Numbered from the stretch's first letter, positions 37,528-55,686 are shown. The stretch: 64,000 bases of DNA from Acidobacteriota bacterium (GCA_965263035.1 OZ253580.1:1-64000); one strand, 5' to 3'. Numbers and translations are program-made. Notes: generated from the sequence alone by a model not told the origin.

Positions 37528-38157
37528 GTGCGCCCGACATGGGCTGTATCTAAGGGATGAAAGATCCCAAGGGAGGTGATGGGACCAACCCTAGCCGAAC
37601 CGCAAGGCGTAGCCGCGAGGTGAAGCTGAAGGAAGCGGAAGGCAAACCCACGACCGCAGGAACACGAACCGGCAGTGAGGCCGGGTGCGGGCGGTGAGCT
37701 GGCGAGCAACAGCGAAACCCGAACCCCATCCAGACGCATCAGGTAGAGCCGGGCGGCCCGGGGGGAAAGATGCAGCACCTTACTCGGGGAGATCTCAAGG
37801 GTGAGAGCCCTTGAGAAGTCAGCAGAGGTCGTAGTAGCGAAGAAGCTGGGTAATGCCGGTGGAGCGAAGGACCGAAGGAGTCGGACTGGCCCTATGGTGG
37901 ACTCGTCAGCGGGATCGCAACTACCTCCGAAAACGGGCCGTGGGGAGGCCCCTCGGACCCGGCATGGAAGGCCCACGGGTGGAGCCCGGCAAGCCGGAAG
38001 GGCGGAGATCAAGTCTCAGCGGCGGCGGAAACCGGAAAGAAAGGCCCTGTACGAGGCTCGAAAGAGCCTCGGGTGACTCCAACCGCCGGATACTGAAAAC
38101 GGTATGTCCGGTGGTGTGGGAGGGTGCAGGGGCGCAATCCCCTGCACTCGACCCGAT
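37528..38157 (+). ncRNA. ORF-less group IIC intron
   Basis: 5' GTGCGCCCG; AGAAGTCAGCAGAGG..GTAGTA; short DV with CGC triad (AACCGCCGGATAC...GTCCGGTGGTGT); DVI hairpin; 3' CCCGAT; no RT ORF. Confidence 0.9.
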
Positions 38158-38419
38158 CGGCTCGGCGGTTGGAAATCGTTGCTCCAATCCTTGGAGAACA
38201 CCGACGGGCCGGCAGCGCATTGACAGCGTCATCGCGGTGTACGGCCGGACCTGCATCCCGGCGGACTTCATAGCTCCCCGGTCACATACGGGCTAGAATG
38301 CTCCCTTGGCGCATTTGGTCCGGCGAGCCGGGTCCCGGTTACGGGGGACGGTCACCACGGAAGGATTCCGAGGCGGGATTGCCGAAGCCAAAGGCTCAAC
38401 GATCTGCGGAGGATCCGTG

Positions 38420-40927
38420 ATGATGACGAATACCCGTTGGCTTGTGGCCCCGATCTTGGTCTGCCTGTGCCTGTCACAGAATGTGCGTTCCCAGGACTCG
38501 CCCACTCCGGTGGATCTGACTCCCTATCTCGTGCAGCCGAAAGCACAGGAATCGGGTCCGTCCGGATTCCAGTTGGCGTTCGCCGGCGAGGCCAGTCACC
38601 GGCTCCAGTTCCAGTATGGAGCCGAGGAGGCCGTCGAGCTGCAGGTGTCGGTGGGGTACCCGGCGGGAGGAGCTCGAACCCTGCGTCAGCTTCTGGACCC
38701 GGGTGCGGAAGGCCGTGAGGTCGGTTTCGATCTGGGGCCCCTGCTGGCCCACGGACCCTATCGTCCGATCCCCGCCTACACTCGCAAGGGTCCCCAGGCG
38801 AAGACTTGGCGTCCCTTGCGCACCGGCTGGTGGGTCGATACCCAGGATCCGGGCAAATATCTCGTGACCGTCATGGGAAGACGGGTGCGGGACGGCCAGA
38901 CCCTGTTTACGACCGACCTTCGGATCCCGGTCCAGAACTGGGTGGGGGCAGATCTGGACCGCTTGGCCTACATCGACGACAACGCGGCCGAGGCGGAGCT
39001 CTGGCTGGAGAAAGGCGCACCCGTCACGGAGCTGCCGGTCGAAGTGGATCTCGTGGAAGCCCGGACCGGCAGCCGGCGATCCTCCTCCACTCCGGTCCGC
39101 CTGACCCGGGACAAGATCCGGGTGGCCTTCGACCTGAGGGACCTGGAGTCAGCGACCTATCACGTTCGGGTCCGGCCTCGTATCGACGGCCGTCTCTGGG
39201 ACGACGGTGTCCGCCGGGCTCTCTACGTGTTCCGGAACGGGCCGCCGCCAAAACCGGAGCCACCTATCGAGATTCCGGTGGCTCCCCAGTTGTTCCTGGA
39301 CGACTTCCTGATCGATGAGCAGCGGAATCTCCAGAGGGTCTTCCATCCGGCTCGCAAGCTGGATGCTCAACCGATTGTCCGGGCGGACCGGCCCTGGGAG
39401 GGGCACGCGGTCATGGTGCCCAAGGGCTCGAGATACGAATTCAACGAGAAGCAGAACCGTTACGAACTGGAATACATTAGCCTGAGCCGCTATCGGTTGC
39501 TGGCCGTCTCCAGTGACGGAGTGCGTTGGACCAAGCCGGATCTGGGCCTGGTGGAGTTCGAGGGATCCCGGGCCAACAACATTCTGGAGATCGTTCCCCG
39601 CGGGAGCAACGTGGAAGCGGACGGCCGCTTCGGGGGACTGTGGGATTACAGGACTCGCGGGGTGCCTGATCTCCGGACCGCCAGCATGGTCTACACCCCC
39701 AAGACCGAAGACATGTTCTTCCTCCGGGGGACGTACCTGGTGGTCCGGGACTCGGACGGTGTCCGGTATCTCACCACGGAACGGCCCTTCATGCGGCATC
39801 ACTCGCAGTTGGAGTCGTTGGACAACCCCAACGACAACCTGGGGCCCATGTTCTACGACGAGCGGACGGGTGAGCTGGTGCTGTACTTCGCGCCGCATCC
39901 TCCGGCCAAGGGGCGGGGACTGGTGCGTTACGACAACAAGTGGGCGGTCTCGCGGAACCTGGGACGCATGACCACGCGAGACGGCGTGAACTGGCACCGG
40001 AGCTACATCTGGGCGCCGCCGCGGGAACATCCGAAGCACCAGAGTTACGGAATGCAGCGGGTGAAGCAGATCGGCGACCTGTACGTGGCGTTCTTTCCTC
40101 TCTACGACTGCGGGACGCAGCAGATGGACGTCCATATCTGGGTGAGCCGGAACGGGATTCACTGGGAGGATGTTGGAGGGGACCAAGCCTGGATCCCCAA
40201 CGGACCCGACGGCAGCTTCGATCATGGGATCGTCTACAGCCTCATCGACGGGCCGGTGGAGGGGGACCGGTCCGAGGCCTTCTACCACGGGACGAACACC
40301 CTGCACTTCAACGCCTGGATCCTGAGCCGGTTGAGGGGGGGATTGGATGATCCTCCAGTGCCAGCCTCCAAGATCTTCGACGAGAAGACCTACAACGGGC
40401 GGCCTTATCTGTCGCCGCCGGCGCCGGTGGGGCCGGGGTGGGCCATGTACGACTGCATCTGGAGTTGGCGGCGGCCTCGCTGCAGCCAGACCATGGAGGA
40501 AGTACGGGAAGCCTTCTGGGCCGAGGTGGAGGCGAACACGGGGCAGAATCGAAGCAACCACGTGGAGAAGAGCCGTGAGTACGAGATCGTGCCGTTCCGG
40601 GTGGAGTTTCGCACCAATGGGTTCGCGTCGAGACGGGCCGGGGAGCAGGAGGGCGTGTTGACGACCCATCCCTTGATCTTCCAAGGGAGCCGTCTGACGG
40701 TGAATGCCGCGGCAAGTGTGGGTCGAGTGGCTGTAGAGGTCTTGGACGAATGGGGTAGTCCCCTGCCCGGTTACGGCCGAAAGGAGTGCCGGCTCGAGGC
40801 CTTCGACAGCATTCAGCAGGAGGTCACATGGCGCGGACAATCGACTCTGGATACATTACGAGGCCACCCGGTTCGTCTCCGATTCTACGTTCACAAAGCT
40901 GACATTTACGGATTTCAAATACATTGA
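38420..40927 (+). CDS. Secreted hypothetical protein, glycosidase-like beta-propeller
   Basis: Signal peptide; LFLDD; Asp-box-like SSDGVRW, TRDGVNW, SRNGIHW; C-terminal LRF...IYGFQ. Confidence 0.7.
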   Translation: MMTNTRWLVAPILVCLCLSQNVRSQDSPTPVDLTPYLVQPKAQESGPSGFQLAFAGEASHRLQFQYGAEEAVELQVSVGYPAGGARTLRQLLDPGAEGREVGFDLGPLLAHGPYRPIPAYTRKGPQAKTWRPLRTGWWVDTQDPGKYLVTVMGRRVRDGQTLFTTDLRIPVQNWVGADLDRLAYIDDNAAEAELWLEKGAPVTELPVEVDLVEARTGSRRSSSTPVRLTRDKIRVAFDLRDLESATYHVRVRPRIDGRLWDDGVRRALYVFRNGPPPKPEPPIEIPVAPQLFLDDFLIDEQRNLQRVFHPARKLDAQPIVRADRPWEGHAVMVPKGSRYEFNEKQNRYELEYISLSRYRLLAVSSDGVRWTKPDLGLVEFEGSRANNILEIVPRGSNVEADGRFGGLWDYRTRGVPDLRTASMVYTPKTEDMFFLRGTYLVVRDSDGVRYLTTERPFMRHHSQLESLDNPNDNLGPMFYDERTGELVLYFAPHPPAKGRGLVRYDNKWAVSRNLGRMTTRDGVNWHRSYIWAPPREHPKHQSYGMQRVKQIGDLYVAFFPLYDCGTQQMDVHIWVSRNGIHWEDVGGDQAWIPNGPDGSFDHGIVYSLIDGPVEGDRSEAFYHGTNTLHFNAWILSRLRGGLDDPPVPASKIFDEKTYNGRPYLSPPAPVGPGWAMYDCIWSWRRPRCSQTMEEVREAFWAEVEANTGQNRSNHVEKSREYEIVPFRVEFRTNGFASRRAGEQEGVLTTHPLIFQGSRLTVNAAASVGRVAVEVLDEWGSPLPGYGRKECRLEAFDSIQQEVTWRGQSTLDTLRGHPVRLRFYVHKADIYGFQIH

Positions 40928-41270: not shown

Positions 41271-42442
41271 ATGTCTAGTTACACCTCCAATTTCGCCGTC
41301 CGTCTATTCTACAGTTATAGCCACAAAGACAGTCATTTTCGCGACTCTATGGAAGACTCGCTTTCATTGCTCAAACAACGTGGATTGCTCGATGACTGGT
41401 CAGATGTAAAGATTTTACCCGGAGGAAAGATCTCGAAAACCAACAGGAAGAAGATGGATAACGCTGACATCATGGTGTTTCTTCTCAGCCGGAACTTCAT
41501 TGCTTCGACCGAGTGCATGAAGGAATGGGAGTACGCAAAGCGTCGTACTAATGAAAAAGTGCTCGTCCGCATTCCAATAATTCTATCCGATTGTGCGTGG
41601 CTAGATTTGCTTGGGAGCGACGACATCAAAGCATTGCCGCGAGATGGCAAACCTATCATGCGATTTGCCGATGACGGTGGCGCCTGGCAACAGGTATATG
41701 AGGGCATTAAAGTCGTTGTAGACAACTTACGAACAACTTTCACTCCAAAACAGGAATTCTTGGAGATAATGGAGAAAACCGATTTCTTGTCCGTACAACA
41801 CATTAGACTACAGGACATTTTTATATTTTTAAGATTGTCCTGTTACGCACCTCATGCAAGGGGGGAACATCCACCAAAAGAACAGGTTGACACCATAGAG
41901 GAGCTATTAAAGAATAAATATACGATAGTCCACGGTGACGAGATGAGTGGCAAGACAGCTCTCGGGCGCTTTCTGTTTCTTTCTCTGACAAAGGAGTTGG
42001 AACCTGTTCTGCATATAGATTTGCAACATCTTCCTAGACGTCCCCTTCGAGAAGAAACCTTTCGCCATACATATCACCGGCAGTTTAATGGCGATTATTC
42101 TCTCTGGAAGCGACAGCCTTCAAAAACCCTTATATTGGACAACTTGCAGCCAACTCCTCAATTAGTTAAATTTATTGTACTCTCCAAGGATTATTTCGAT
42201 AAAATAATAGTTACTTTATCGTCTGATATATTCAACTCGTTTTTCAGGGACGAAGAGCGTCTGGCCGAATTCTATGAAATGGAAATTGAACCGCTTACTC
42301 ACCGACAGCAAGAGACGTTGATTAGAAATAGACTCCGATTGTCGGATCGTAGCGAAACAATCACCGACGGCGTCGTCGATCAAATAGAAAACCGAGTGAA
42401 TTCCATAATCATTTCTAACAGGATCGTACCACGGTATCCATT
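41271..42442 (+). pseudogene. TIR-domain P-loop NTPase, 5' half
   Basis: FYSYSHKD...SRNFIASTECMKEW TIR; GDEMSGKT Walker A; ends at the TSD. Confidence 0.88.
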
Positions 42443-42493
42443 GGGGACTACACAGATGTCTAGGCACGCCCAAATGCGCCAAATCAGAGACTA

Positions 42494-42580
42494 TCAATCT
42501 CGCACGAAAGTGCTAGAATAGGAAGAGGGGAGCACAACAACCAAGGGCCACACCATCACAACTGCAAGGCCATCAGTCAT
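42494..42580 (-). CDS. 28-aa hydrophobic peptide (type I toxin-like)
   Basis: MTDGLAVVMVWPLVVVLPSSYSSTFVRD; SD GGAG; paralog adjacent. Confidence 0.45.
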   Translation of the reverse strand: MTDGLAVVMVWPLVVVLPSSYSSTFVRD

Positions 42581-42604
42581 CTTAAGGCTCCCCTGCCCCA
42601 TTGC

Positions 42605-42688
42605 CTACCGAATCAGGTAGAATGGCGGGGAGGGGAGCATAAAAACCAAGGCCGACACTAACACAATTAGATCAGCGGCATCAGTCAT
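42605..42688 (-). CDS. 27-aa hydrophobic peptide (type I toxin-like)
   Basis: MTDAADLIVLVSALVFMLPSPPFYLIR; SD GGAG; TATAAT upstream. Confidence 0.45.
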   Translation of the reverse strand: MTDAADLIVLVSALVFMLPSPPFYLIR

Positions 42689-42766
42689 CTTAAGGCTCCC
42701 CTCCATCATTTCATTATACTGCTTGCCTGTAAGATCAGACCCACGAAAGTGCTAGAATGGGATGGA

Positions 42767-42857
42767 GGCGGGTTGCCCGACTTTGGATGATGGGGCCTGT
42801 TTCAGAAACAGGTTGGTCCTTATGGCCACGGAGGTTCGAGTCCTCCACCCGCCTCCA
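42767..42857 (+). tRNA. Atypical tRNA, anticodon CAG, long variable arm, U73, CCA encoded
   Basis: GGCGGGT/ACCCGCC acceptor; CCTGT-TTCAGAA-ACAGG; GGAGG-TTCGAGT-CCTCC. Confidence 0.8.
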
Positions 42858-42904
42858 TCAGGGTTATTGTACTGCTTGCCTGTAAGATCAGACCCACGAA
42901 AGTG

Positions 42905-43159
42905 CTACAAGCCCTGTCGGTGAGACCTTTCTTTTGGAGTCAATGCCCATTCGACACCTCTCGGTTGATGGACTTTCCCTTGGTCCCTTAACAGTTTGAG
43001 TTGTCCTGTAGTAATTGCATTGAACCCCTGCTCTGGCAAACCGAGCTTTTCAGTAATTGGACTTAACGACAACCCCTCCTCGTATTTCTCCAATAGATTC
43101 AAGATTCCAGCTTGGATCAAGCGTTCTCCCATCTCTGCAAGCATTCTAGCCTCTGCCAT
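42905..43159 (-). CDS. Small winged-HTH-like protein
   Basis: ILNLL...GLSLSPITEKLG...LKLLRDQGKV...WALT; SD AGGAGG. Confidence 0.6.
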   Translation of the reverse strand: MAEARMLAEMGERLIQAGILNLLEKYEEGLSLSPITEKLGLPEQGFNAITTGQLKLLRDQGKVHQPRGVEWALTPKERSHRQGL

Positions 43160-43185
43160 CTGCTTCCTCCTAAGTAAAATACATC

Positions 43186-43485
43186 ATGGAACTAGGATTC
43201 ACACTTCCACCCACCCGACCCCGCCCAAAGATCCCTCTACAGCAAACGTGTAAGAGGTGTGGGCAACCAGACAAGTTCGACTTCCACGTACCAGATCATC
43301 TTTGGAAGTCTATAGTCCCAAAGTCCCATCGGAACCTTGCTATGTGTCTGTATTGCTTCGATGAGGAGGCCGCCGCTAAAGGTATTCCCTACGCGTGGGC
43401 CATCACTGAGTTTTGTTTTGCAGGCCGCGGAGCCACATTTGGCTTCACGGTGTCACGATACGTTGAAAAGAGGCAACTGATCTAG
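43186..43485 (+). CDS. Small CxxC...CxxC protein
   Basis: CKRC and CLYC motifs. Confidence 0.55.
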   Translation: MELGFTLPPTRPRPKIPLQQTCKRCGQPDKFDFHVPDHLWKSIVPKSHRNLAMCLYCFDEEAAAKGIPYAWAITEFCFAGRGATFGFTVSRYVEKRQLI

Positions 43486-43649
43486 TCGTCACAGTCGCCG
43501 TCCTTTTCTTTGGCCTGGCACTGATTGCAAAGTTCCCCGCTGGTCGGCTTCGCGTTCCTGCTAACGTAGTCGTCCGTTGGCCAGTTGGAACAGTTGCGGC
43601 AATAGTGCCACGTATCGCTCGTTCTTCGCTTTCGGTATTGTCTCGCCAT
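43482..43649 (-). CDS. Small zinc-finger-like protein
   Basis: TWHYCRNCSNWP...GELCNQC; SD GGGG. Confidence 0.6.
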   Translation of the reverse strand: MARQYRKRRTSDTWHYCRNCSNWPTDDYVSRNAKPTSGELCNQCQAKEKDGDCDD

Positions 43650-43766
43650 GCTTTTCACCCCCTTTCTGGCTAGTCGTGATCCCATTAAGGAAGGAATCAG
43701 AGGAGCTTGATAAGAGACTTCAAATATAGCTTGAGTGCACGCCCAAATGCGCCAAATCGGATATTC

Positions 43767-43979
43767 TCAATCGTCAATCTGAGAGGCAGCGAACTCCAAG
43801 ACTCGGGCTAGTTCTCGGGCTTGGTTAGTACTCATATATGAGTAAACATTACCGTTTTCAATCCTCAGTTCCAGTGGGTAAGTCTCTTTGCAATCTTCCT
43901 CGTGAGGGTATCGAAGGCGAACTTCCCTGGTGGGGTACGCGCTCAATGTGATCTCAAATTCTTTCTTACTGTCTATCAT
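43767..43979 (-). CDS. Hypothetical protein (preceded by a 36-aa ORF at 43992-44102)
   Basis: Strong SD GAGGAG; 70 aa. Confidence 0.6.
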   Translation of the reverse strand: MIDSKKEFEITLSAYPTREVRLRYPHEEDCKETYPLELRIENGNVYSYMSTNQARELARVLEFAASQIDD

Positions 43980-44548
43980 GGTCCTCTCCTCCTATAGTCC
44001 CAACATTCGAGCAAACTGCTCCTTGGTCATGCCGTCATAAATGCTGCGTTTCGGCCTGAAGAAGTTATTTAGATGTTGCAGTACAATAATGACAATTGCC
44101 ATTGGTTTACATCTCCATAGTTATTTCATTGGCAACGGCCAGGGGGTTTGGGAGTTCTTCCCCCTGGCCACTAACCTTCCTCAGATATCATACCACAGAA
44201 TCAGGAAAAGGGAACGGCGGGGAAGAGCGGAGGAGTCTGACGGCTCCGAAGCGACACACTACGCATCAGATCCGACACCCGGCTTTCCAGTGTGTCACAG
44301 GCTCCCTTGCGTGCGTGAGCAAGTAGGCAAGGAGTTCATCCTCCGCTCCTCTGTCCTCTTATTGTACTCCGTGTGCAATACGTGGAGGATTTAGGAGGCG
44401 GCGCGGCTCCAACATGGAGCAAAGGGTTTTGTGTAGCCAGTTCAGTTAGGCAAAAACGCGCCGCCCTGGTAAATGCCTACCATGATATTCGATGGAGTGC
44501 AACCTGTGATCTGGATTTCTTGTCACAGGTGGTCTACGATGCGGTGGA

Positions 44549-44652
44549 GGAGGGGTGGCAGAATTGGCATTGCACTCGAATTTAAACTCGTAGGTCAGTA
44601 GGCGTTGCACCACAGCGCACCTGTACGGGTTCAAATCCCGTCCCCTCCTCCA
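44549..44652 (+). tRNA. Degenerate tRNA-like gene; very long variable arm, irregular anticodon arm (loop around TTTAAA)
   Basis: GGAGGGG/CCCCTCC-TCCA acceptor; ACGGG-TTCAAAT-CCCGT T-arm; D-loop TGG. Confidence 0.6.
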
Positions 44653-44662
44653 TTGTGATGTC

Positions 44663-44751
44663 GGGAGCGTGGCCGAGTTGGATTATGGCGCCCGGCTGAA
44701 AACCGGGTGGGTGTAACAGCCCCGCAGGTTCGACACCTGCCGCTCCCGCCA
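44663..44751 (+). tRNA. Atypical tRNA: Ser-like body with GAA (Phe) anticodon
   Basis: GGGAGCG/CGCTCCC-GCCA; CCCGG-CTGAAAA-CCGGG; long variable arm; G73. Confidence 0.85.
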
Positions 44752-44773
44752 TCAATTCATAATACTCGGAGCA

Positions 44774-45223
44774 TCAAAAAAGCCTTTGACTTCGTTGGAG
44801 CAGGCCATCGAGTCTTCCTTTCGGAAGTTTTCCAACAGATTCCCAAATCGTCTCTCCAAAAACCGCCTCATACGATCCTGATTCGATGAACTCAGTAGCG
44901 TTTAGCGAGAGGATGACCCCAACACAGTCCGCCAGTATCAGTGCGGCCAGCGCCTCACGTCGGACCATCCCTCCAAAACCATTACGGGCACCAAAATCAA
45001 TTAGGACTAGTCGATACCCTTTAAGTTCAGGAGAGCTAGACGCGATCGTTTTTATTACTGTAGTGCTGTACACCTCCAGGCTGTTAGGGTCTGTCAACTT
45101 CTGTTGAATCTGCTCGTTTAGACCCGGAACACTGCCGTCTGAACTCATGCAATTAGACCCACTCGACGGCGTACAATTGGCGGTCAGAAGCACAAGAAGC
45201 AAAACGGTGCAGGAGTTTTCCAT
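44774..45223 (-). CDS. Putative lipoprotein
   Basis: LLLVLLTANC lipobox-like; FGARNGFGGMVR motif. Confidence 0.6.
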   Translation of the reverse strand: MENSCTVLLLVLLTANCTPSSGSNCMSSDGSVPGLNEQIQQKLTDPNSLEVYSTTVIKTIASSSPELKGYRLVLIDFGARNGFGGMVRREALAALILADCVGVILSLNATEFIESGSYEAVFGETIWESVGKLPKGRLDGLLQRSQRLF

Positions 45224-45254
45224 AACTCAATCTTTAATTAGAATAGATGTAGAC

Positions 45255-45345
45255 GGCGGGTTGCCCGACTTTTGGATGATGGGGCCTGTTTCAGAAACAG
45301 GTTGGTCCTTGTGGCCACGGAGGTTCGAGTCCTCCACCCGCCGCC
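45255..45345 (+). tRNA. Atypical tRNA, anticodon CAG, long variable arm, G73
   Basis: Near-identical to 42767-42857 except the discriminator; TAGAAT upstream. Confidence 0.8.
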
Positions 45346-45477
45346 CTTGCAATGAAGGAGGATGAGAACCGAAACCGTGCCTTCCCTAACTTCACACTGC
45401 CGACTAGAGCAGCTTAAAAGAAGGCGAGTAACGAACCGAAAAGCTCATCCTCCTCCATCAATTTATAATACTTTGAC

Positions 45478-46755
45478 CTAAAGTCCTGGCACAGAACTGC
45501 ACTTCGATGGAACGATCACAGGATCATCCGATTCCTCAGACTCTCGGTACCTAATAGACCCTCTTTGCGACCAGGGGAGGTTAGGCACATCGGGCAGTTC
45601 AATCTCTGTTCTAGTACCGCCTACGAATCCCTTATCTGGCACCAGTACCCATTCACCACGCCTGTACCAGATGTGAGATCGTGCCCAGACCCGCGAGTAC
45701 CTAATATCGATCGGATCATCTTCGGACATACGTCGGTGGAAAGCGCCGATGTTTGGATTAGGTTTAGAGCTACTAGAAAAGGAACTCGTCCAACTCAGCT
45801 TTCCAGAGAAATTCAACCTGGCCGTAGCGACACATCGACCTGGTCTTTCTTCAAATACCTGGTGGATCTGGTATCCTTGTGCAGTATCAGGCAACTCATA
45901 TCCGCCATCAGAGGTACGGGTTCTACCACCTCCTGCAGGAACCACTGACATCCCATTCTCCAGAGCAGGAGGGATCCCTTGGTAGTCAGCACGTGCTGCC
46001 TTCCCATAGATGCCTTCTATTGTGGTGTCAAAAGCTCCCTTTTCCCGTATTACAATGTCTCTCCAGTCACCAGGGGGACAGTCACCTTCCGTCACGTCTG
46101 GAGGGCCTTCATACAATCGCTCCCACTGTGCTTCATGCCACCGGGCGTTTCCATACTCCGGAGCAAAAGACTCAACTACCATCAAGGTGTAATCGAGCCC
46201 TGTCCCTGACTCTGGGTCGTCCACTTTGACAAGCCAACGCTTGAACTCATCTACAACTCGCCGATTCATGTCGGAGTAGCTTTTGACTCCGACAATGTGC
46301 CCACGGAAGTACTCGGTCCCAGAGAACGAATCAGAGAGAACACGTATACATTCCTCTGTCTTGAGGACTTCATGGGCATCTTGAATGGGCGCTTCGGTGA
46401 GCTCCACTGATTCGCACTCGAGTTCGTCTTTGAATCTAAAGGAGTCTGTTGGGTCCTTGTCTCCATAGATGAGTACAAGAGGGTCGGGAAGAGGAACGAC
46501 CATTGCAGCAAAGAACTTCCCTGACTCGTACTCTGTGACTCTCCACTCATAGATGTGACCACAATGGATCGCATCAAAAAATTCTAGGTTGATGATCTGA
46601 CCGTCGTGGGGAGGCTCTGAAAGACTCACCTCAACGCGACAATCTGGACAGGCGTTAGGGATAAATCCGTATGGAGTGTCGAATCCCCACTTCTCCTCGG
46701 CTTGTACATTCGCCAGGAATGCAGCAAAGGCCATTAGCACAATTACTTTTCTCAT
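45478..46755 (-). CDS. Secreted hypothetical protein
   Basis: MRKVIVLMAFAAFLANVQA signal peptide; SD AGGAGG. Confidence 0.75.
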   Translation of the reverse strand: MRKVIVLMAFAAFLANVQAEEKWGFDTPYGFIPNACPDCRVEVSLSEPPHDGQIINLEFFDAIHCGHIYEWRVTEYESGKFFAAMVVPLPDPLVLIYGDKDPTDSFRFKDELECESVELTEAPIQDAHEVLKTEECIRVLSDSFSGTEYFRGHIVGVKSYSDMNRRVVDEFKRWLVKVDDPESGTGLDYTLMVVESFAPEYGNARWHEAQWERLYEGPPDVTEGDCPPGDWRDIVIREKGAFDTTIEGIYGKAARADYQGIPPALENGMSVVPAGGGRTRTSDGGYELPDTAQGYQIHQVFEERPGRCVATARLNFSGKLSWTSSFSSSSKPNPNIGAFHRRMSEDDPIDIRYSRVWARSHIWYRRGEWVLVPDKGFVGGTRTEIELPDVPNLPWSQRGSIRYRESEESDDPVIVPSKCSSVPGL

Positions 46756-46783
46756 AGCGTACCTCCTTACTCTGTATTCAGAT

Positions 46784-47128
46784 TCAGAATCCCAATGCCT
46801 TGCGGGCGAACTTCTGGATCTGTTTCCACATAATGACCTGATCGAAGTGATGGTCAACGCCGTAATGGTCAGTGTGCGTTATACCATCCTTCAAAATCTC
46901 GCCTGCAATGGGGAGCACGGAGTCGGGAGTCCACCGAGTCAGAACGTCCGAAGGATCGTCCGTCCGGCACAGGTACATCTGTGCTGTAATAACGATCATG
47001 TAGTCGCCTGTGTCGGACGGAATCACGAACAGTGCGTTTGGAGGAGTCTCCACCTCCGTGTTCCAAGGGTGTCCCACACCAAACGCGACGGATAGAATTG
47101 TGATAGCGATTAGCAATGTGTTTCTCAT
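46784..47128 (-). CDS. Secreted hypothetical protein
   Basis: Signal peptide; SD AGGAGG; TATAAT upstream. Confidence 0.65.
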   Translation of the reverse strand: MRNTLLIAITILSVAFGVGHPWNTEVETPPNALFVIPSDTGDYMIVITAQMYLCRTDDPSDVLTRWTPDSVLPIAGEILKDGITHTDHYGVDHHFDQVIMWKQIQKFARKALGF

Positions 47129-47991
47129 AATGCCTCCTTCTCGTACCTTGTGTACGACTTGTTGATTTATGACATCGGTGACCGACGCATTTAGTACACT
47201 ATTATATCACATTATAATAGATGCACAAAGCAAGACGACCAAGGAATTAAGGAAGTATTCGGAAGGGGCGGGACAATAACAAACCGCCCCTTCGAACATC
47301 GCTCCGGGGTCGGGTGAAAGTAGTAAAGCCCTCCCCCATGTGGGAGCGATTACCGGGGTGGCCGAATCAAAGCTACACCTTCATCGTCGTACTGTCCGAC
47401 CCAATTATCGTGGGACAGACGATGTCGGGCGTGCGATCTCAACTGTGCCCGAGTTGCCGGGAGGAGCAGACCCATGAGGCGCGTCTGATCCTGAGCGAGG
47501 GGCAACAACGCTTCCCAGGTAATGCCTCCTGGCGCAGTCATCAAGTGATCGAGGTATCCGGCGTAGGTGCTGAAATTGCGGGGCATCGCGGGTCCCTCCT
47601 GGGGGAGGGTCCCGTATCAGAGGCGTAGCAAGCTGACAACGTATCGGGTAAACTGTCTGACAGGCTGACTTTCCTCCAACACAGGACCAGTTGGCTCAGA
47701 GTCCGTTGGGTGCTGATATCACCTGACGGACTCACCTTTTCAGAGTACTCGGCCTAGCTACAAGGAGCACTCGTTCCCTTGTAAGGGAGCCGGGTCTGAG
47801 TGCTCATCGAACAGCGATGCTGATGGAAGAGTTGCTTATTCACCCGGCGCGGTTCATGAGGCCACGCTTTACCAGGTTGTTTTATTCAGCAAGAGACCCG
47901 ACACAAGCGAATCACTGCCGAGAGCACTGAGGCGGGATTGTGCCGGATAAATAATTGGTAGTCAATAGAAGGGAGAAAATTATCTCAACTC

Positions 47992-48219
47992 TCAGCGGAG
48001 GGTGTCCACCACGGCATTCCGTACCGATTCCATCCAGGTCTCAATCTCCCGCTGGTGTTGGACCAGGGCCTTTACCTTGTCGTCCACAATCCGCAGCCGT
48101 CGGATAATGAGCAGGTGAGAGACGATGATGAGGAATAGGACCAGGAGCAAGGCGAAGGCGTACCAGTGTTGATCGACGATGGGAGGGATTCGGGAGAGTA
48201 ATGAGTTGAGCTGTTCCAT
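47992..48219 (-). CDS. Small single-TM protein
   Basis: FALLLVLFLIIVSHLLII followed by a coiled segment. Confidence 0.55.
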   Translation of the reverse strand: MEQLNSLLSRIPPIVDQHWYAFALLLVLFLIIVSHLLIIRRLRIVDDKVKALVQHQREIETWMESVRNAVVDTLR

Positions 48220-48272
48220 GCTTCAATCTTCCTGCTTTGCCGAAGTATAATACATACATGGCGGAGGGTTGA

Positions 48273-48348
48273 TGGACGCAGCGGGCTTCGGACCCGCGTC
48301 TCCCGGTTTTCAGCCGGGTGTGTTATCCGGGATAAACACTATGCGCCC
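48273..48348 (-). tRNA. Atypical tRNA: G3:U70/A73 (Ala identity) with GAA (Phe) anticodon
   Basis: GGGCGCA/TGCGTCC-A; GTGT/ACAC D-stem; CCCGG-CTGAAAA-CCGGG; GCGGG-TCCGAAG-CCCGC; no encoded CCA. Confidence 0.75.
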
Positions 48349-48475
48349 TCGGTTTGCTTTTCCCTCCGCCATTCTAAACATCTTGCCAAGGTCAGGGGTC
48401 TTTGGTATTTTGGCCTCTCTCGCGCATGATTGTAGGCAATCAATATTATGTGTTATCATGTGTTCTTCAATGATG

Positions 48476-48551
48476 TGGAGCCGGTGCCAGGAATCGAACC
48501 TGGACACGAGGACTTGCTGGGCCCCGGCGTTTGCCATTCCGCCACACCGGC
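48476..48551 (-). tRNA. Atypical tRNA, anticodon AGC, C3-G70, U73, CCA encoded
   Basis: GCCGGTG/CACCGGC-TCCA; GGGGC-CCAGCAA-GTCCT; CCAGG-TTCGATT-CCTGG. Confidence 0.75.
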
Positions 48552-48575
48552 TCCCTTCATTATAGACCGTCAGAG

Positions 48576-48651
48576 GGGAGCCGGTGCCAGGAATTGAACC
48601 TGGAAACAAGGAATTGCGAGTCCCCGACCTTGGCCACTCAGTCACACCGGC
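48576..48651 (-). tRNA. Atypical tRNA, anticodon CGC, C3-G70, U73
   Basis: Same body; GGGGA-CTCGCAA-TTCCT. Confidence 0.75.
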
Positions 48652-48675
48652 TCCCTTCATTATAGACCGTCAGAA

Positions 48676-48751
48676 GGGAGCCGGTGCCAGGAATCGAACC
48701 TGGAAACAAGGAATTGCCACTCCCCGACCTTGGCCACTCGGCCACACCGGC
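48676..48751 (-). tRNA. Atypical tRNA, anticodon GGC, C3-G70, U73
   Basis: Same body; GGGGA-GTGGCAA-TTCCT. Confidence 0.75.
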
Positions 48752-48871
48752 TCCCTTCATTTTAGCACAGGGGGACTATCGTGAAAAAACGACCTCGCAA
48801 GCCCGTGGACATCCTAGCCCTGGCAATGCGCCGGGCTTATGAGCAAACTAGGGGCGGAGAAGCCGAATCCC

Positions 48872-49843
48872 TCAATGAAGATCGTCCGCCTTGTCGGAAA
48901 CCAGATCGAGATACAGCAGACGACGACCGACCATCCCCGCCACGATGTGCTTCATCTGGTCAATAGTATCCAGTTCCCGGATGTTGTGACGCTTGACAAA
49001 CTCGTTGACGTAGCGGTGCAGGTGCTTCACGCTCAAGCTGTGGAACGTCCCCATGTAGCCCCGCTTCAACATCGACCAGAAGGATTCGATGCCATTTGTG
49101 TGTACTATGCCGTCAACGTACTGTTGAGCGCTGTGTCTCACAGACTTGCGATTTGAGCCCATCCAGGCGTAAGCCTGATTCTCGTCCGTGTACGACTTCA
49201 CTCCGAAAGTGGAGCTGTCCAAAATGAACCGGGCAAGAGTCTCCTTTGTCGTGTCCGGCACCACCCTGGCCCTGATTTGATTCGTAGGCCGGTCCTTCAT
49301 GCCTACCACTGCGGTCTTGCCTGAGGGTCCACGACCGGAAAACATCGCCCGTCGCTTCTTGCTCATGTTCCTCCGCTTGCCTCCCATATAAGTCTCGTCG
49401 ATTTCCACGGGACCGATCAGAGCTTCCAAATCGTCCTTGTCCAAGGACTCGCGGAGTCGGTGCAACATGAACCACGCCGTATTCTGCGTCACGTCGATGT
49501 CTCGATGGAGTTTCATCGAGGAGACTCCCTTGAGGTTCGTGACGTAGATGAAAATGGCGTAGGCCCATTTTCGGAGCGGAACCTTGGATCTTGTCAAGGC
49601 CGTGCCAGTGCGGACGCTGAAATACCTACGGCAGTCCGAACACCAGTACGGCTGCGGATATCGGTTTGGCGTCTCATTCGTCTTGACGCTGCCGCAATGA
49701 CCACAGCACCGTTCCTCGGGCCAGAGAACATCCTCAAACCATTTCGTCGCGGCTTCCTCCGTGGGGAACATCTCCGCGAGTTGGATCATTGAGATCCCTT
49801 GTCGGTAGAACTTTCCGGGGGCTTTCCCCTTGCACTTGTCCAT
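48872..49843 (-). CDS. IS1595-family (ISXO2-like) transposase
   Basis: Zn ribbon CGHC/CSDC; VEIDETYMGG, YTDE, HTNGIESFWS. Confidence 0.95.
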   Translation of the reverse strand: MDKCKGKAPGKFYRQGISMIQLAEMFPTEEAATKWFEDVLWPEERCCGHCGSVKTNETPNRYPQPYWCSDCRRYFSVRTGTALTRSKVPLRKWAYAIFIYVTNLKGVSSMKLHRDIDVTQNTAWFMLHRLRESLDKDDLEALIGPVEIDETYMGGKRRNMSKKRRAMFSGRGPSGKTAVVGMKDRPTNQIRARVVPDTTKETLARFILDSSTFGVKSYTDENQAYAWMGSNRKSVRHSAQQYVDGIVHTNGIESFWSMLKRGYMGTFHSLSVKHLHRYVNEFVKRHNIRELDTIDQMKHIVAGMVGRRLLYLDLVSDKADDLH

Positions 49844-50152
49844 GGTGGGCCTTTCGTGGTAGGATTCTCGGGACGCGGCTGAACCGAGGAACCCACGGCC
49901 TGGCAACCTCCGTTTGTAAGTGAGAGACCAGAGCGCAGGACCTGCTTCGAAACCGCGTCCAATTCAATTATATCACACCTTTATAGATGGTGTTTTTATC
50001 AGCCTTACTCTCCTTTAATTCCCTGTAATTATGCCATCGGACCCTGACATTTTTCTGTCATAAATCCTTTGTTTAGTTTAAGGTTACGAAGATTTAATTG
50101 ACCTTTTGTGTGATTGTGTGGTAAAATTATTGGGTTAATGTGAACAGGAGGC

Positions 50153-50332
50153 ATGATGACTAAGAAGGAACTCAACGGATTCACAGAGGCAGTTCGAACG
50201 GTTGTCCGAGAGGAATTAAAGCCGATTGAGCAGCGTCTCGACAAACGCCTTGACGACTTGAAGAAGGAAATCCCTGGTCTAGTTGCGGACGTGATCGCAC
50301 AACGATTTCCAACCCTGTTCCCACACTCATAG
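50153..50332 (+). CDS. Small coiled-coil protein
   Basis: MMTKKELNGFTEAVRTVVREELKP...; SD AGGAGG; paralog of 50427. Confidence 0.6.
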   Translation: MMTKKELNGFTEAVRTVVREELKPIEQRLDKRLDDLKKEIPGLVADVIAQRFPTLFPHS

Positions 50333-50426
50333 GCTGCCAGATCAATTAGGAGGAAGGTTACGAAGATTTAATTGACCTTTTGTGTGATTGTGTGGTAAAA
50401 TTATTGGGTTAATGTGAACAGGAGGC

Positions 50427-50705
50427 ATGATGACTAAGGAAGAACTCAACGGTTATGTCAACGCCGTCAGGCTCGTGGTCCAGGAGGAACTTGAGCCCGT
50501 CAAATCTCAGATTACAACCCTGACTCTTCGAATGGGAGATGTGGAACTGAGGTTGGGAGAGGTTGAAGCCAGAATGGGCACGTTGGAGTCTCGCATGGGA
50601 ACGGTCGAGGCCAGAATGGGGACATTGACTCAGAGAATGGGTGATGTTGAGACTAAGGTAGGGGCGTTGACTCAGAGAATGGGTGATGTTGAAGCCAAAT
50701 TGTAG
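50427..50705 (+). CDS. Small heptad-repeat coiled-coil protein
   Basis: (A/S/Q)RMG(T/D)(V/L)E heptads; duplicated 85-bp promoter/RBS block. Confidence 0.65.
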   Translation: MMTKEELNGYVNAVRLVVQEELEPVKSQITTLTLRMGDVELRLGEVEARMGTLESRMGTVEARMGTLTQRMGDVETKVGALTQRMGDVEAKL

Positions 50706-51073
50706 GATGGGGTGATGGAGGAGAACGACTAGACGTAGTTGTAGGGGTAGGTGACTACTGCCCCTCCGGGGGGAGCGATGGAGTTAGTCAAACTACCACT
50801 CCCTCTGTCCCCTCCATCATTTAATTATACTCCCCACGAAAGTGTAGAATGGGATGATGGAGGAGGGAAACCAATCCTGCCGTCCCATGTATTAACACCA
50901 CAATCGGCAGGGCTACCGTTGAGGCACACCCCAAGGCGGTAGGCTGCTCAGCGATAGTGTGTCTTCCACTGGGTCCAGCCATCGCCCTCCTCCATCATGT
51001 GATTGTACTCCCCACGAATGTAAGGCCCAGTTCAATGACCCTGGAGGCGTGCCTAGACATCTGTGTAAGCCCC

Positions 51074-52387
51074 TATCCATTCTACGTACTCTCAATACTC
51101 CAAACCTACGAGGCCTTTATGCCTAGTGAGCTCTCTATTACTTCCTACGGTCACTGTTACTATGTCCTTATTATTGCCAACTTAGTTAAGGCAGGCATAC
51201 CTCGTAGCGACGATCAACTAAATACATGTTTTTACTTTGCAGAACGCTTAGCATTTGAAATTTATCGGATTGCAAGGAAATCCAACTCGGGGTCGTTGGA
51301 TTTTGACAAGTTTGTGGCGGACTACAGAAATCAATATATAATTTCGCGATCGGTCCTGAGTAGGTTGATGCATCCCGATTTTGGAATCATCAATACAGAA
51401 GGTCAATTCAAAACAGCGTACATGTACTACTTCTTTCTGGGCAGGTTCCTCTCGAAGAACCGCAGCACACACATATCCATAATTGAGAATATGTGTGAAA
51501 ATAGCCACGTGACTTCGAACCACCTGACGCTTCTTTTCGTTATTCATCATACTGATGATAGACAAATAATTGATGACATATTGCTTAGGACAATGTGCAC
51601 ACTGGACACTGTGCAACCCGCGGTTCTAGATCGAACGGAAACTCGGAGATTCAAGGATATCATTGCCGGGCTCCCCACAAATATACTCTCCAATGATAGT
51701 GTGGTGAAGGAAAGGAAAAGACAGAGGGATGGTCGCGACTTGACCGAGAAGCAAGACGGGTACGATGGTGATACGGATGGCATCGATCAACAAAGCCTGG
51801 TTAACGACATTTACAAAATCTTTAAAAATAACGAGATTATGGGGCAAATTCTACGAACCAAATACGGAACGTTAAAAAAAGAGACGATTGTGGAAATCAT
51901 CGAGACGATTGCGGACAGTGGGCTACGCCTTGTCAACTTTGTCCTCAAGGATGAAAAGGAAATAGCCGATACCGCCCACTACCTTCATGCGAAATATCCG
52001 AAGGATGATATAAAGAAGATAAAAAACTATCTTCAATTCTTTTCTTTTTTCTGGACGATAGTAAATGTTGAAAAAGTTGCTAGAGCCATAAATGTTCCAG
52101 AGATTATTGAAACGGTCGATTCAGTCGTTACGCGGAAGGGGTCGCCGGCGTACGATCTTATTGGATACTTCAGCCTGCTCGACAGTTCTCCGGAAATCTC
52201 AAGGAAAGTTAATAAACGACTAGGATACCTATTGAACACTCACAAGGACCTGTTTGTTAAGTGGGTGTTGTCAATTAGAACGCAATACTATATGAATACC
52301 CACGATAGTGGGGCATCGATGGAGCAATCGGTCTGTTCGTTGTTAGATATCAAGTATTCCTCAGCCCATCGTTCCTTACGACGGTAA
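51074..52387 (+). pseudogene. TIR-domain NTPase, 3' half
   Basis: Removing the transposon and one TSD gives in-frame NRIVPRYP|FYVLSILQ; 825 aa in total. Confidence 0.88.
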
Positions 52388-52599: not shown

Positions 52600-54337
52600 C
52601 CCAGATTATTCATGGAACATGTTGATAAGAGCTTCCAACCCGGCGTTTTCGTGCGATCGGAGCCCGGTTTCTCTTGAACCTCTGTCGATTCGACTGAATC
52701 GGCTCGAAAACAGGACGATTGAACCAGTCATTAACCGTTTACCGGCCAGGGGGACCGTCACCCGCCGACAGGTTGACTTTCCGGTGAGAAATCCCCACCG
52801 TTTCGGTCCCTTCCACGGGCCCGTTTTCTCCTCCGTCCACTATCCCGGCGCCCAGGACACCCGCGCCAGTCTCTGCCACAACCGCTTCCAGTCCGTCGCC
52901 CCTTGACTGATGACGAAAATCAATCGCCTCCCCTGACGCAGCGCCCGACTCGCCACTCGCAACACCCGCTCGCGAAAACGACGCAGACTCCAGCCCCGAC
53001 GCGTCGCCTGCTCCATCAGCACCCGACCCAGGTGCAGGATCTCGTACCCCAGCAGATTCAGCAGGAACCGGACTTCGTTGTGGGGTCGAACGCCGGCCTC
53101 CGTCCTCGCTTCCGGCTTGGCTTCCGACTTCAGCGGTTGGCCCCGATAGTGCGTCTTGGGCCGGCTCGCGGAGGACAAGGCCGGATCGAGCACGTCCATG
53201 AACTCCCCCATGTGGCCTTCCGCCTTCCCCCGCTTTCGATACTGTGCCAGCAACTCCTGAGCCTCGTATCGTTTCCGGCTCAGGCTCGTCAGCAACCAGA
53301 AATGATCCGGATACAACTCCCCCGGTCGCTCCCGCACCACCAGCACCACCCGGAGCGTCAACTTCAGCGCCTTTTTCCCCAGGTAGCTGGCTCCCGGAAA
53401 AATCTCCCCGTCGATCAGGTCCCCCGTCTCGGCACAACTCGCCACCAACCCGTGGTACATCCGCTGGCGATAGTATCCGTTCCATTCGCTTCCCGGGGGA
53501 TGCCCATGGACCTCGACCGGGAGACCGTCCACGTCCAGGTACATCGTCTTTTTCCGTCTCTTCTTCCGTGGGGTCTTTTTCCCCCGTTTTCGCCGCTGGC
53601 CTTCGATCATCTCGATCCGACGGCACGCCAGCTCCGTCACCGCCTGGTGCAGGACCGGAAGGTTCTCCTCCCGGCTGAGCGTGTCCAGCAGTCGGGACAA
53701 GGTCGGCTGCGACGCCAGCCCCTGGCCCTCCTCCAAGGCCGCCGTGCCCCGACGAGTCCGGCTCGCCACCCGCAAGCTCGGATCCTGACGCAGGCGGTCG
53801 GCGTCGGACTGGTCGCGCCAGCCCTGACCCAGCAGCAGGAGTCGAGTCCGCAGCAGATCCGACAGCGGATAGCGGATCGAACTCGGGTGTCGCGGATCGT
53901 GCAACCGCCCGGTCAACCAGTCGATGAGGCCGCTGCGATCCATCAGCTCCCGCTGCACCAGGGCTCCCGTGTCCGCACTGAGCAACTCGGGGCGGGTCTC
54001 GAGGCGGAGGGATCGGTTGAATGAGGGCCGGATCTGCGGTATCGTCTCAGGCATGGCGTGCTCCGTTCTTTGTGGTTGTTTCTTAGCACTATAATCATAC
54101 CACAAATGACGGGCACGCCGTCTCTTTATGCCGCCCTTGGAGGGGACGAAAACCGTGGAAATGCTTGGGTTTCGGCCCCCCTTGAATCCTGGGGTTAAAC
54201 CGACGTTGAAAACAAATATAGCGTTTCACCCAGGTCGGATCCCATCCGTTTTCTGTGGGTATCCGGTAACCCTCTGATCCGACTCGACATGACGGGCACG
54301 CTTGCTCATTTTATGTTTGCGTGATGAATAATCTGGG
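52600..54337 (-). mobile_element. IS1380-family element; transposase 52840-54054, possibly internally deleted
   Basis: Perfect TIR CCCAGATTATTCA; LSADTG, LASQPTLSR, LDVDG, YRKRGKAE. Confidence 0.85.
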
Positions 54338-54342
54338 ATTAA

Positions 54343-55686
54343 GGGGATTATCTACCAAACTATACAAATCCCCTATCACTTCGGCTTCTTATGGACACGA
54401 ATAGACGGGTCCGGTCGCTTGGCGTTGGCGAACATCCTACGGGCAACTTCCTCCGGTGTGGCATCCAATTTGATGATGCGGGTGACAGGGCGTCCACCTT
54501 TGTTCTTAGGTTTGGGTTTCTTCGCCATTCTCACGTTTCCCGAATGGACATATATCTCCGCTTTTTATTCTCTTTTCGCAAACCGATCAGTGTGTAGACG
54601 TTGGACTTGAGCCGGTTACACGGACCGCATCAATGGGCTGTGGACGGTTACTAGGCTCACGCAATCAAATCCCGGTAGTGTAGGAGCTTCCTGTCCATTC
54701 TCCGGACTATGAAGCCCATCTGTGTGTCCATTTCCCGGATGTTCTGTCTTCCAGCGAACTCCCGAACGTATTTGTGAGTGGGCTTGGACGAGAAGTGATG
54801 GAACGTCCCAACGTATCCCGGCTTGAGCATGCTCCACAGGGACTCGATGCCATTGGTATGAACTTGGCCCTTCACTTACTCTTGGGCGCTATGATTGACC
54901 GAATCGTGGGAGTATTCCTTCAGGCCGATGTAGGCGGGCGAGTCATCCGTGTAGACTTCCGACTCCGGGACCACAGTCTCACGTACGAACTTTACGAACT
55001 TCAGGAGGGTCTTTCCCTTGGGGTTCGGGACCACCTTGGGCGCCACCCGCTTGGTCTGCCGGTCTTTTATCCCGACGACAGCCGTCTTTCCCACGGCCCC
55101 ACGTCCTTCCATCTGGGCTCTCTTGGCCTTTGGCATGTTCTTCCGCTTCCCGCCCATGTAGTTTTCGTCCACTTCGACTGGACCCGGCATAACTGTTGGA
55201 TCACCGAAGAACTCCTCACGGATTCTCTGCATGAGATACCAGGCCGTCTTCTGCGTGATTCCCAGCCCCCTGTGGAGCTTCATCGAAGAGGTGCCCTTCA
55301 GTCCCGTAGTCATCATGTAGATGGCGAGGGCTCACTTCTGGAGGCCGATCTTGCTGGACTGCATGACCATGCCCTTGCGGACGCTGAAGTAACGTCGACA
55401 ATCCCGGCAGTGGTAAGGCATGGGTTTCCGGGACTTCACGGCCTTCGTATTGACTGAGCCGCAATCTGGGCAACATCTCTCGTTGCCCCAACGCTGCTCT
55501 TCAAACCACTTCTCGGCGGCCGTATCGTCGGGAAACATCCGAAGCAACTGGATGATGGTCAACCCTTCTCTATGGGCCTTTCCGGGGGCTTTCTTCGCTG
55601 TTCTCTTTGTTCCTTTCATGTGTAGTATTCGACCAGAATCCACTGACACTTTTCAACGGATTAGTGTAGTATGGTATATAATCTCC
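54343..55686 (-). mobile_element. Second IS1595-family element, frameshifted transposase, essentially no cargo
   Basis: TIRs GGGGATTATCTACCAAACTA / GGAGATTATATACCATACTA; ATTAA remnant of TSD; fragments 55332-55619, 54876-55316, 54657-54875 (VEVDE, YTDD, HTNGIES). Confidence 0.85.

Follow-up and report, generated by a model that had tools for sequence, protein, structure and literature searches.

The 64,000-nucleotide stretch of Acidobacteriota DNA analyzed here (OZ253580.1:1-64000; the window) contains an 8,631-bp transposon, at positions 42443 to 51073, that carries an array of small structured units. The element holds about 15 such units in a common polar frame, arrays with this frame recur in two other genomes, and one unit type shows covariation. 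Throughout, G000 is the genome that bears the window, G004 is a genome of the same genus, and G010 belongs to another genus of the same family. The reading that we favor, tentatively and at a little under an even chance, is that an IS1595-family transposon bears, as its cargo, an array of cassettes for tRNA mimics that do not decode, and that the multi-hairpin units reported in an earlier, sequence-only reading of the window are the non-tRNA end of a graded set that runs from irregular tRNAs to mimics within one cassette frame.

The sequence-only reading had described five multi-hairpin RNAs in this region. Minimum free energy (MFE) folds were compared with those of 200 dinucleotide shuffles per unit. 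The five units were found where they had been placed, folded on the plus strand as described, and were all much more stable than shuffled sequence (z of -2.99 to -5.01):

44225-44348, plus strand: multi-hairpin unit 1, with closing helix GAGCGGAGGA and three inner hairpins (44225-44347: MFE -49.5 kcal/mol, z -2.99, 2 of 200 shuffles as stable)
44397-44465, plus strand: three-way-junction unit (44390-44470: MFE -37.1 kcal/mol, z -4.21, 0 of 200 shuffles as stable)
45356-45454, plus strand, with the strand uncertain: rod-like unit with covarying stems and further copies in G010, here called the CCGAAA unit (45350-45460: MFE -33.3 kcal/mol, z -4.23, 0 of 200 shuffles as stable)
50713-50819, plus strand: four-way-junction unit 2 (50705-50825: MFE -58.6 kcal/mol, z -4.70, 0 of 200 shuffles as stable)
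50854-50998, plus strand: four-way-junction unit 3, with a 14-bp closing helix and a 22-nt loop (50853-50998: MFE -65.4 kcal/mol, z -5.01, 0 of 200 shuffles as stable)

The hairpins that had been singled out (ACGACUA/UAGUUGU, AGGGGUAG/CUGCCCCU, CCUGCCG/CGGCAGG, and CUACCG/CGGUAG) were present in the MFE folds, and the 22-nt loop, which belongs to the CCUGCCG/CGGCAGG hairpin, appeared in the centroid fold. The GGAGG/CCTCC closing stem was also present, but the helices are longer than had been claimed, with 9 to 14 perfect pairs (for example, ATGATGGAGGAGGG). The proposed four-way plan, a closing GGAGG/CCUCC helix around three inner hairpins, describes the units at 44225, 50713, and 50854; the unit at 45356-45454 is instead a rod, and that at 44397-44465 is a three-way junction. 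The cores are as unrelated as had been supposed, since all 15 pairwise local scores, in a set that took in one unit from another genome, had z values of <1.7. The idea of one unnamed family was not supported: only the frame is common to the units. The CCGAAA unit alone has a small family of its own. The list of five was also incomplete, with about 15 units lying between 42525 and 50998.

Beyond the five reported units, the element contains eight tRNA-model matches in 6 kb and two other stem-closed units:

42525-42600, plus strand: stem-closed unit with a large A/C-rich loop and a TAGAAT box upstream, paralogue of the 42629 unit (z -0.65)
42629-42704, plus strand: stem-closed unit with a 10-bp GGAGGGGAGC closing helix and both flank boxes (z -4.45)

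The order of the frame is a TAGAAT-type box, a G-rich/C-rich closing helix, and then CCATCA-N4-ATWRTACT. A TAnnAT box ends 3 to 10 nt before the 5' arm in 11 of the 15 units, and in 6 units it reads TAGAAT, often with TG before it. The 5' arm is G-rich (GGAGG, GGCGG), the 3' arm is complementary to it, and WTWRTACT follows in 8 of the 15 units, after CCATCA and about 4 nt. The pattern CCAT-N4-9-WTWRTACT occurs 11 times in the 6.2-Mb genome, and 7 of these occurrences are within the 8.6 kb of the element. Because TAGAAT is found only upstream of the units and never downstream, the frame is polar. It is common to the unrelated multi-hairpin cores and to true but irregular tRNAs, in which leader-trailer pairing spans the CCA end. 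The downstream box may function in convergent transcription, as a signal for processing, or as a site for binding.

The tRNA-like members of the array are as follows:

42767-42857, plus strand: irregular type II tRNA with anticodon CAG, discriminator U, and paired leader and trailer
44549-44649, plus strand: tRNA-like RNA with long insertions (Rfam tRNA score, 39.4 bits), missed by ARAGORN at default settings
44663-44751, plus strand: type II tRNA with a Ser-like body, G73, and anticodon GAA, with a homologue in the same frame in G004
45255-45345, plus strand: second copy of the CAG tRNA (97% repeat), with promoter-like TTTCCA-16-TAGAAT
48258-48372, minus strand: caged tRNA with anticodon GAA (inner gene, 48273-48348) and an 11-bp outer helix (z -5.13), a design also found in G010 and G004
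48476-48752, minus strand: three tandem U73 tRNAs with anticodons AGC, CGC, and GGC and with GCA at positions 35-37

A full canonical tRNA set is present elsewhere in the genome, and no tRNA of the island is close to any canonical one. In the caged tRNA, an outer helix of the GGCGGAGGG type encloses a complete tRNA. U73 is the discriminator of tRNA-Cys, and in the tandem trio GCA is shifted to positions 35 to 37, which accounts for the formal anticodons AGC, CGC, and GGC. The D and anticodon stems of the trio differ by compensating changes, and position 34 varies. Extra ARAGORN calls that had been considered as a second array near 2.51 Mb were false positives in coding or repeat DNA. G004 has a stand-alone, 73-nt type I tRNA (L246 1504-1576; G004:C1, about 1.817 Mb; 65.5 bits) with anticodon GCU, which is normally carried by the long-arm tRNA-Ser.

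Within the family, G004 and G010 were the only other genomes in which arrays with the frame were seen. (Several negative tallies in this study, among them those for 60 relatives, 76 genomes of the order, and 137 genomes of the class, count the unpublished genome G016 as one genome without a match; the positive claims are independent of it.) G010 holds three arrays. One consists of a caged tRNA followed by two copies of the CCGAAA unit, and another, directly after an IS1595 transposase, consists of a hairpin unit followed by two more copies. The third lies behind a TTGACA-18-TATCTT promoter and contains two units, one three-way (z -8.3) and one four-way (z -8.6). The four-way unit is closed by a GGGAGCGGAGGG helix, and its first hairpin bears a 22-nt loop, like the unit at 50854-50998. 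In G004, a type II GAA tRNA with the TAGAAT box and 3' flank, another tRNA, and a caged tRNA whose anticodon loop is enlarged by about 30 bases are found around an IS1595 copy. When the three caged tRNAs from the three genomes were aligned, 13 pairs were changed on both sides.

Covariation, which the sequence-only reading had named as a check on its RNAs, was found for one reported unit type, the CCGAAA unit, whereas blastn detected no homologues of the other four in 60 relatives or 14 family genomes. The CCGAAA unit has five copies, one in G000 and four in G010, and its covariance model matched 2 of 137 genomes of the class. In these five sequences from two genomes, seven pairs in the plus-strand fold, or eight in the minus-strand fold, have changed on both sides. 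The covariation score was reached by 0 of 500 shuffles, and the proportion of paired cells dropped from 91 to 94% to 25 to 55% when the partners were slid.

A second conserved structured motif adjoins the arrays in all three genomes:

47785-47905, plus strand: GCCGGGT motif, GGGAGCCGGGT...ACCCGGC, with four copies in three genomes and six double-change pairs

The plan of this motif is GGGAGCCGGGT...CTGCC...GGCAG...ACCCGGC, with a 9-bp outer helix, and its other copies are at L136 745-880, L136 1111-1230, and L195 16127-16226. In G004 and G010 the motif is followed by a possible pseudoknot partner, GCAGACAAC/GTTGTCTGC. The region of the motif in the window was also matched by blastn in G005 and G003, and no tRNA was detected there.

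In other searches, blastn of 50690-51030 against the 60 relatives gave no match, and 44190-44775 and 48240-48790 gave only matches of 23 to 60 nt (E of 0.004 to 0.03) in the 14 family genomes. For the whole element against the 137 class genomes, with the best 2 candidates considered per genome, the transposase was nearly the sole match. The 3'-flank pattern had at least 121 single, scattered matches in genome contigs, which were read as chance, and a looser flank pattern showed no excess over a reversed control outside G000 in 76 genomes of the order. A pattern for the CCGAAA unit gave 42 loci in metagenome contigs, none with the helix architecture, and these were read as chance or low complexity. 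A tRNA was nearby at 1 of 27 other IS1595 loci, and the link between IS1595 and arrays is limited to G000, G004, and G010.

The limits of the carrier are defined by its ends and by the gene that it splits:

42435-42442: left target-site duplication, 8 bp, TATCCATT, identical to the 8 bp at 51074-51081
42443-42470: left terminal inverted repeat, 28 nt (31-nt repeat, 90% complementary)
51046-51073: right terminal inverted repeat, imperfect 28-nt partner of 42443-42470
41271-42442, plus strand: N-terminal half of the split TIR-STAND NTPase gene (Pfam TIR_2, nSTAND3)
51074-52387, plus strand: right copy of the duplication (51074-51081) and C-terminal half of the TIR-STAND gene
48872-49906, minus strand: IS1595-family DDE transposase (Pfam DDE_Tnp_IS1595, E 1.8e-34; Zn_ribbon_IS1595)

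The 21-nt core of the inverted ends is found only at the two ends of the transposon in the whole 6.2-Mb genome. The transposon interrupts the TIR-STAND NTPase gene, a bacterial defense gene, in frame; the left half corresponds to residues 1 to 390 of an 824-amino-acid (aa) TIR-STAND homologue (62% identity) and the right half to residues 389 to 820 of the same homologue (63% identity). An intact target gene was not found in the 14 family genomes, and database homologues were used to establish the split instead. The transposase, the only one inside the element, scored 119 bits against a cutoff of 27 for DDE_Tnp_IS1595, and together with inverted ends of about 25 bp (28 nt here) and the 8-bp duplication it places the element in the IS1595 family. 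Cargo elements of this family are described with 25-bp ends and 8-bp repeats (PMC5704250). In four DNA sequencing runs from two studies, the element was at the same site and the RNA units were without differences; no joint of an empty site was found among the contigs of those runs, although contigs cannot show absence. The runs listed for this DNA included none of RNA.

Weak inverted repeats at 48388-48408 and 50031-50051 (21 nt, 71%) are candidate ends of a nested insertion sequence (IS) that would take in the trio of tRNAs with NGC anticodons as passengers. A nested IS of about 1.3 kb is possible; homology to the IS copy of G004 is limited to 48796-50094. A 36-nt stretch inside the left end (42464-42499) recurs 1.3 kb inward at 43737-43772 (89%); this repeat could be a site for subterminal binding or could have been left by an earlier end.

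Two checks that the sequence-only reading had proposed for known kinds of RNA, an Rfam scan and a comparison with terminators, both left the units without a known class. No Rfam family was detected at its gathering score in any of the five units, and at E values of up to 5 neither RF00005 nor any other Rfam family matched the five units, except for a chance-level SNORD46 (E 4.2). Terminator-like sites, taken as a short G+C-rich hairpin followed by a T run, numbered 3 in the region versus 7.5 expected, and none was at a unit. The suggestion that the units are tRNA mimics stands in part. It draws support from the frame that they share with irregular tRNAs and from the caged tRNA in three genomes, but none of the five had an Rfam tRNA match, and ARAGORN at default settings called 0 of 5. 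Only with ARAGORN at 90% thresholds and with introns allowed could 44221-44353 be called as a tRNA with a 41-nt insert, which is a hint of a tRNA-like alternative fold of the 44225 unit.

If the array is a set of tRNA-mimic cassettes, each cassette would have an extended -10 promoter of its own and be transcribed on the plus strand. The closing helix would unite the 5' and 3' ends and might serve as an acceptor-like, end-protecting, or processing helix, leaving the variable arms as the part presented to partners. Instead of decoding, the RNAs would benefit the element as mimics of, or decoys for, the tRNAs that certain proteins bind or cut. Candidate partners would be nuclease toxins, synthetases, and modification or processing enzymes.

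The minus strands fold about as well (z of -2.6 to -5.4), and energy alone therefore gives no strand. Judged from the tRNAs that have this frame, the reported units are probably on the plus strand, with the exception of the CCGAAA unit, whose strand is uncertain. The unit at 50713 agrees with the plus strand, on which its fold is 14 kcal/mol better than on the minus strand and contains four G-U pairs.

Several observations weigh against the mimic reading. No tRNA-targeting toxin, toxin-antitoxin pair, or other partner was recognized among 12 proteins of the element with Pfam, NCBIfam, and PHROGs, and four of the five reported units lack homologues in the genomes searched. The unit at 42525 folds no better than chance. 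The downstream box, when read in the opposite direction, makes a good -10 hexamer (TATAAT, TACAAT, or TATTAT) at a fixed distance of 8 to 9 nt from the helix, and the minus-strand folds at 44225, 45356, and 50853 are as good as or better than the plus-strand folds. For the CCGAAA unit, pairs are more numerous in the minus-strand fold, which contains five invariant G-U pairs as well as one change from U-A to G-U, and a promoter-like GTGCCA-16-TATTAT on the minus strand is directed into the unit.

One explanation for some of these observations is that the non-tRNA units are decaying or scrambled tRNA pseudogenes, functionless by-products of duplication and insertion in a tRNA array, in which only the flanks and closing helices would be left, the copies being young. 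The missing homologues and the chance-level fold at 42525 are consistent with such an origin, as are the 41-nt insert in the relaxed ARAGORN call, the insert of about 30 nt in the anticodon loop of the G004 caged tRNA, and the label "pseudo?" that is attached to several members in a table of Mukai et al. (PMC5389517). However, decay should erode helices, yet unrelated cores keep three good hairpins (z to -5.0, and -8.6 in G010), the cores have no residual likeness to one another or to tRNA, and the CCGAAA unit and the caged tRNA have been kept with compensating changes across genera. It seems unlikely that the non-tRNA units are pseudogenes.

For 45356-45454 only, a cis-acting 5' leader on the minus strand, reaching from the TATTAT at 45465-45470 toward a lipoprotein-like open reading frame (ORF) at 44774-45223, has to be weighed. 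Such a leader would make use of the promoter-like sequence, and the minus-strand fold is better by 16 kcal/mol, with 29 pairs that are 93.7% paired and include the five invariant G-U pairs. However, the transcript would cross the CAG tRNA antisense, the four copies in G010 precede unrelated genes on the minus strand, and the orientation of the frame agrees with the plus-strand tRNAs, so that this role is distinctly unlikely.

The units might also act as DNA, either as cassettes resembling miniature inverted-repeat elements or recombination sites, with inverted ends (the -10-like box and GATGGAGG) bound by a transposase or recombinase, or as folds of single-stranded DNA. The inverted repeat does run past the helix into both flank boxes (24 nt, 83%), the two strands fold about equally, the units are inside a transposon, and their ends are kept while the cores are swapped. 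However, the frame also surrounds bona fide tRNAs and has a polarity, with TAGAAT upstream only, single units have no flanking duplications, and no copy of a unit was found elsewhere in the genome. The third position of the two boxes is always mismatched, and the boxes are therefore not kept for pairing; the extension of the helix into them looks like two -10 boxes rather than a helix. Each unit also has two to four G-U pairs, which would be A-C on the other strand and which support RNA over duplex DNA. A function as DNA is thus very unlikely.

The sequence-only reading had also suggested antisense or guide RNAs. Large open loops, which trans-acting RNAs might show to nucleic acid targets, do exist, of 22 nt (50854-50998 and the G010 unit) and of about 56 nt, rich in A and C (42525 and 42629). 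No target was found in the 6.2-Mb genome of the host itself; apart from a T-arm likeness to tRNA-Glu, no complementary or identical stretch of at least 17 nt was present elsewhere on either strand, and phage and plasmid targets were not searched. Numerous 15/16 matches to a multicopy IS, considered as an antisense target, were one chance match multiplied by the copies of the IS. No guide-using protein was recognized among the scanned proteins of the element, and we hold a guide function to be highly doubtful. The least probable proposal, an RNA-only effector library on one display frame, is conjectural. Each cassette would have two promoters that face each other, a sense TAGAAT and, at a fixed 8 to 9 nt, an antisense AGTAYWAT; their products would be a harmful tRNA mimic and an antisense RNA that is its antidote. 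The array would then be an RNA-based addiction or anti-defense module that spreads by core swaps in a constant helix.

Other features of the region concern its small genes and its neighborhood. A 99-nt promoter and leader (TTGACC-18-TAAAAT) is duplicated at 50080-50178 and 50354-50452 with 98% identity, and the duplicated leaders precede two small genes for coiled-coil proteins, one of 59 aa and one of 92 aa. The 92-aa gene, which is the second, contains 42-nt tandem repeats, and its end abuts the start of the unit at 50713. Just to the right of the split gene are another IS1595-family copy, which is broken, and the DDE_Tnp_1_4 transposase of an IS with about 30 copies (54657-55650 and 52840-54105, respectively), and the surrounding region is a sink for mobile DNA. 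Group II intron domains were detected at 37609-37872 (Rfam D1D4-3, 85.5 bits; D1D4-1, 43.6 bits); they are followed by an 873-aa ORF at 38306-40927, which had no Pfam match where a reverse transcriptase was expected.

Irregular non-decoding tRNAs have been known from soil metatranscriptomes without a carrier or a function. The locus provides a complete example in a closed genome, with an IS1595-family carrier and a visible frame, and it gives evidence that RNAs which have ceased to be tRNAs can occupy that frame. The catalogues searched contained none of three small conserved designs found here, namely, the caged tRNA, the GCCGGGT motif, and the CCGAAA unit. If the RNAs are made, they would be a mobile tool-kit of tRNA mimics, for which the locus is a concrete test construct.

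Parts of this arrangement resemble known RNAs. RNA C and RNA D of phage T4 are small stable RNAs in the phage tRNA cluster. Like them, the units are non-tRNA, stem-closed small RNAs among tRNA genes on a mobile genome, but the carrier here is a bacterial transposon and there is no sequence relation. Bacterial Y RNAs (YrlA) have a tRNA-like module and are bound by Ro60/Rsr. The long helix formed from the 5' and 3' ends and the tRNA-like module are similar, but the helix here encloses the acceptor end, the units had no Rfam Y RNA match, and a TROVE/Ro60 gene was found in 0 of the 3 array-bearing genomes, although it was detected in both controls, Deinococcus radiodurans and Bacteroides thetaiotaomicron. 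RNase III processing stalks surround rRNAs and tRNA precursors, and here too a leader and trailer pair over 10 to 24 bp around a structured RNA; unlike in such stalks, the pairing that runs on into the flank boxes always includes a mismatch. The cargo transposons of the IS1595 family (MTnSag1 and tISCpe8; PMC5704250) share the DDE transposase, ends of about 25 bp, 8-bp duplication, and passengers with the present element. The latter, whose transposase is the putative mover of the 8.6-kb unit, differs in that it carries genes for small RNAs and for uncharacterized small proteins in place of resistance or mobilization genes.

The closest known system is that of Mukai et al. (2017; PMC5389517). 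That source describes polycistrons of irregular tRNAs that are transcribed in forest and peat metatranscriptomes, are regarded by its authors as acidobacterial, and are linked to toxin-antitoxin genes or transposons. In the same account, tRNAs with a cognate triplet at positions 35 to 37 are charged without decoding, and the set includes 7/5 U73 tRNAs that have a CUCGCAG loop, as well as tRNAs with inserts of 38 or 64 nt. The array described here is likewise an irregular tRNA-like cluster with a mismatch between identity and anticodon and a triplet at 35 to 37. Compared by eye only, its trio is of the 7/5 U73 kind with a CUCGCAG-type loop and resembles tRNA0; the array also has members with large inserts or pseudogene marks and a link to a transposable element. 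In comparison with those polycistrons, as far as they are described in the text consulted, the array has an apparent -10 box for each unit rather than forming one polycistron, no toxin-antitoxin genes were recognized in it in the Pfam, NCBIfam, and PHROGs scans, several of its units are not tRNA-like yet share the closing helix and flanks, its carrier is a defined transposon with ends and a target duplication, and its tRNA caged in an outer helix has no counterpart there. We read the array as a variant form of these irregular tRNA polycistrons. Relative to the text consulted, what is new is that the carrier is defined, that the cassettes have a frame in common, that one tRNA is caged, and that the frame also holds non-tRNA cores.

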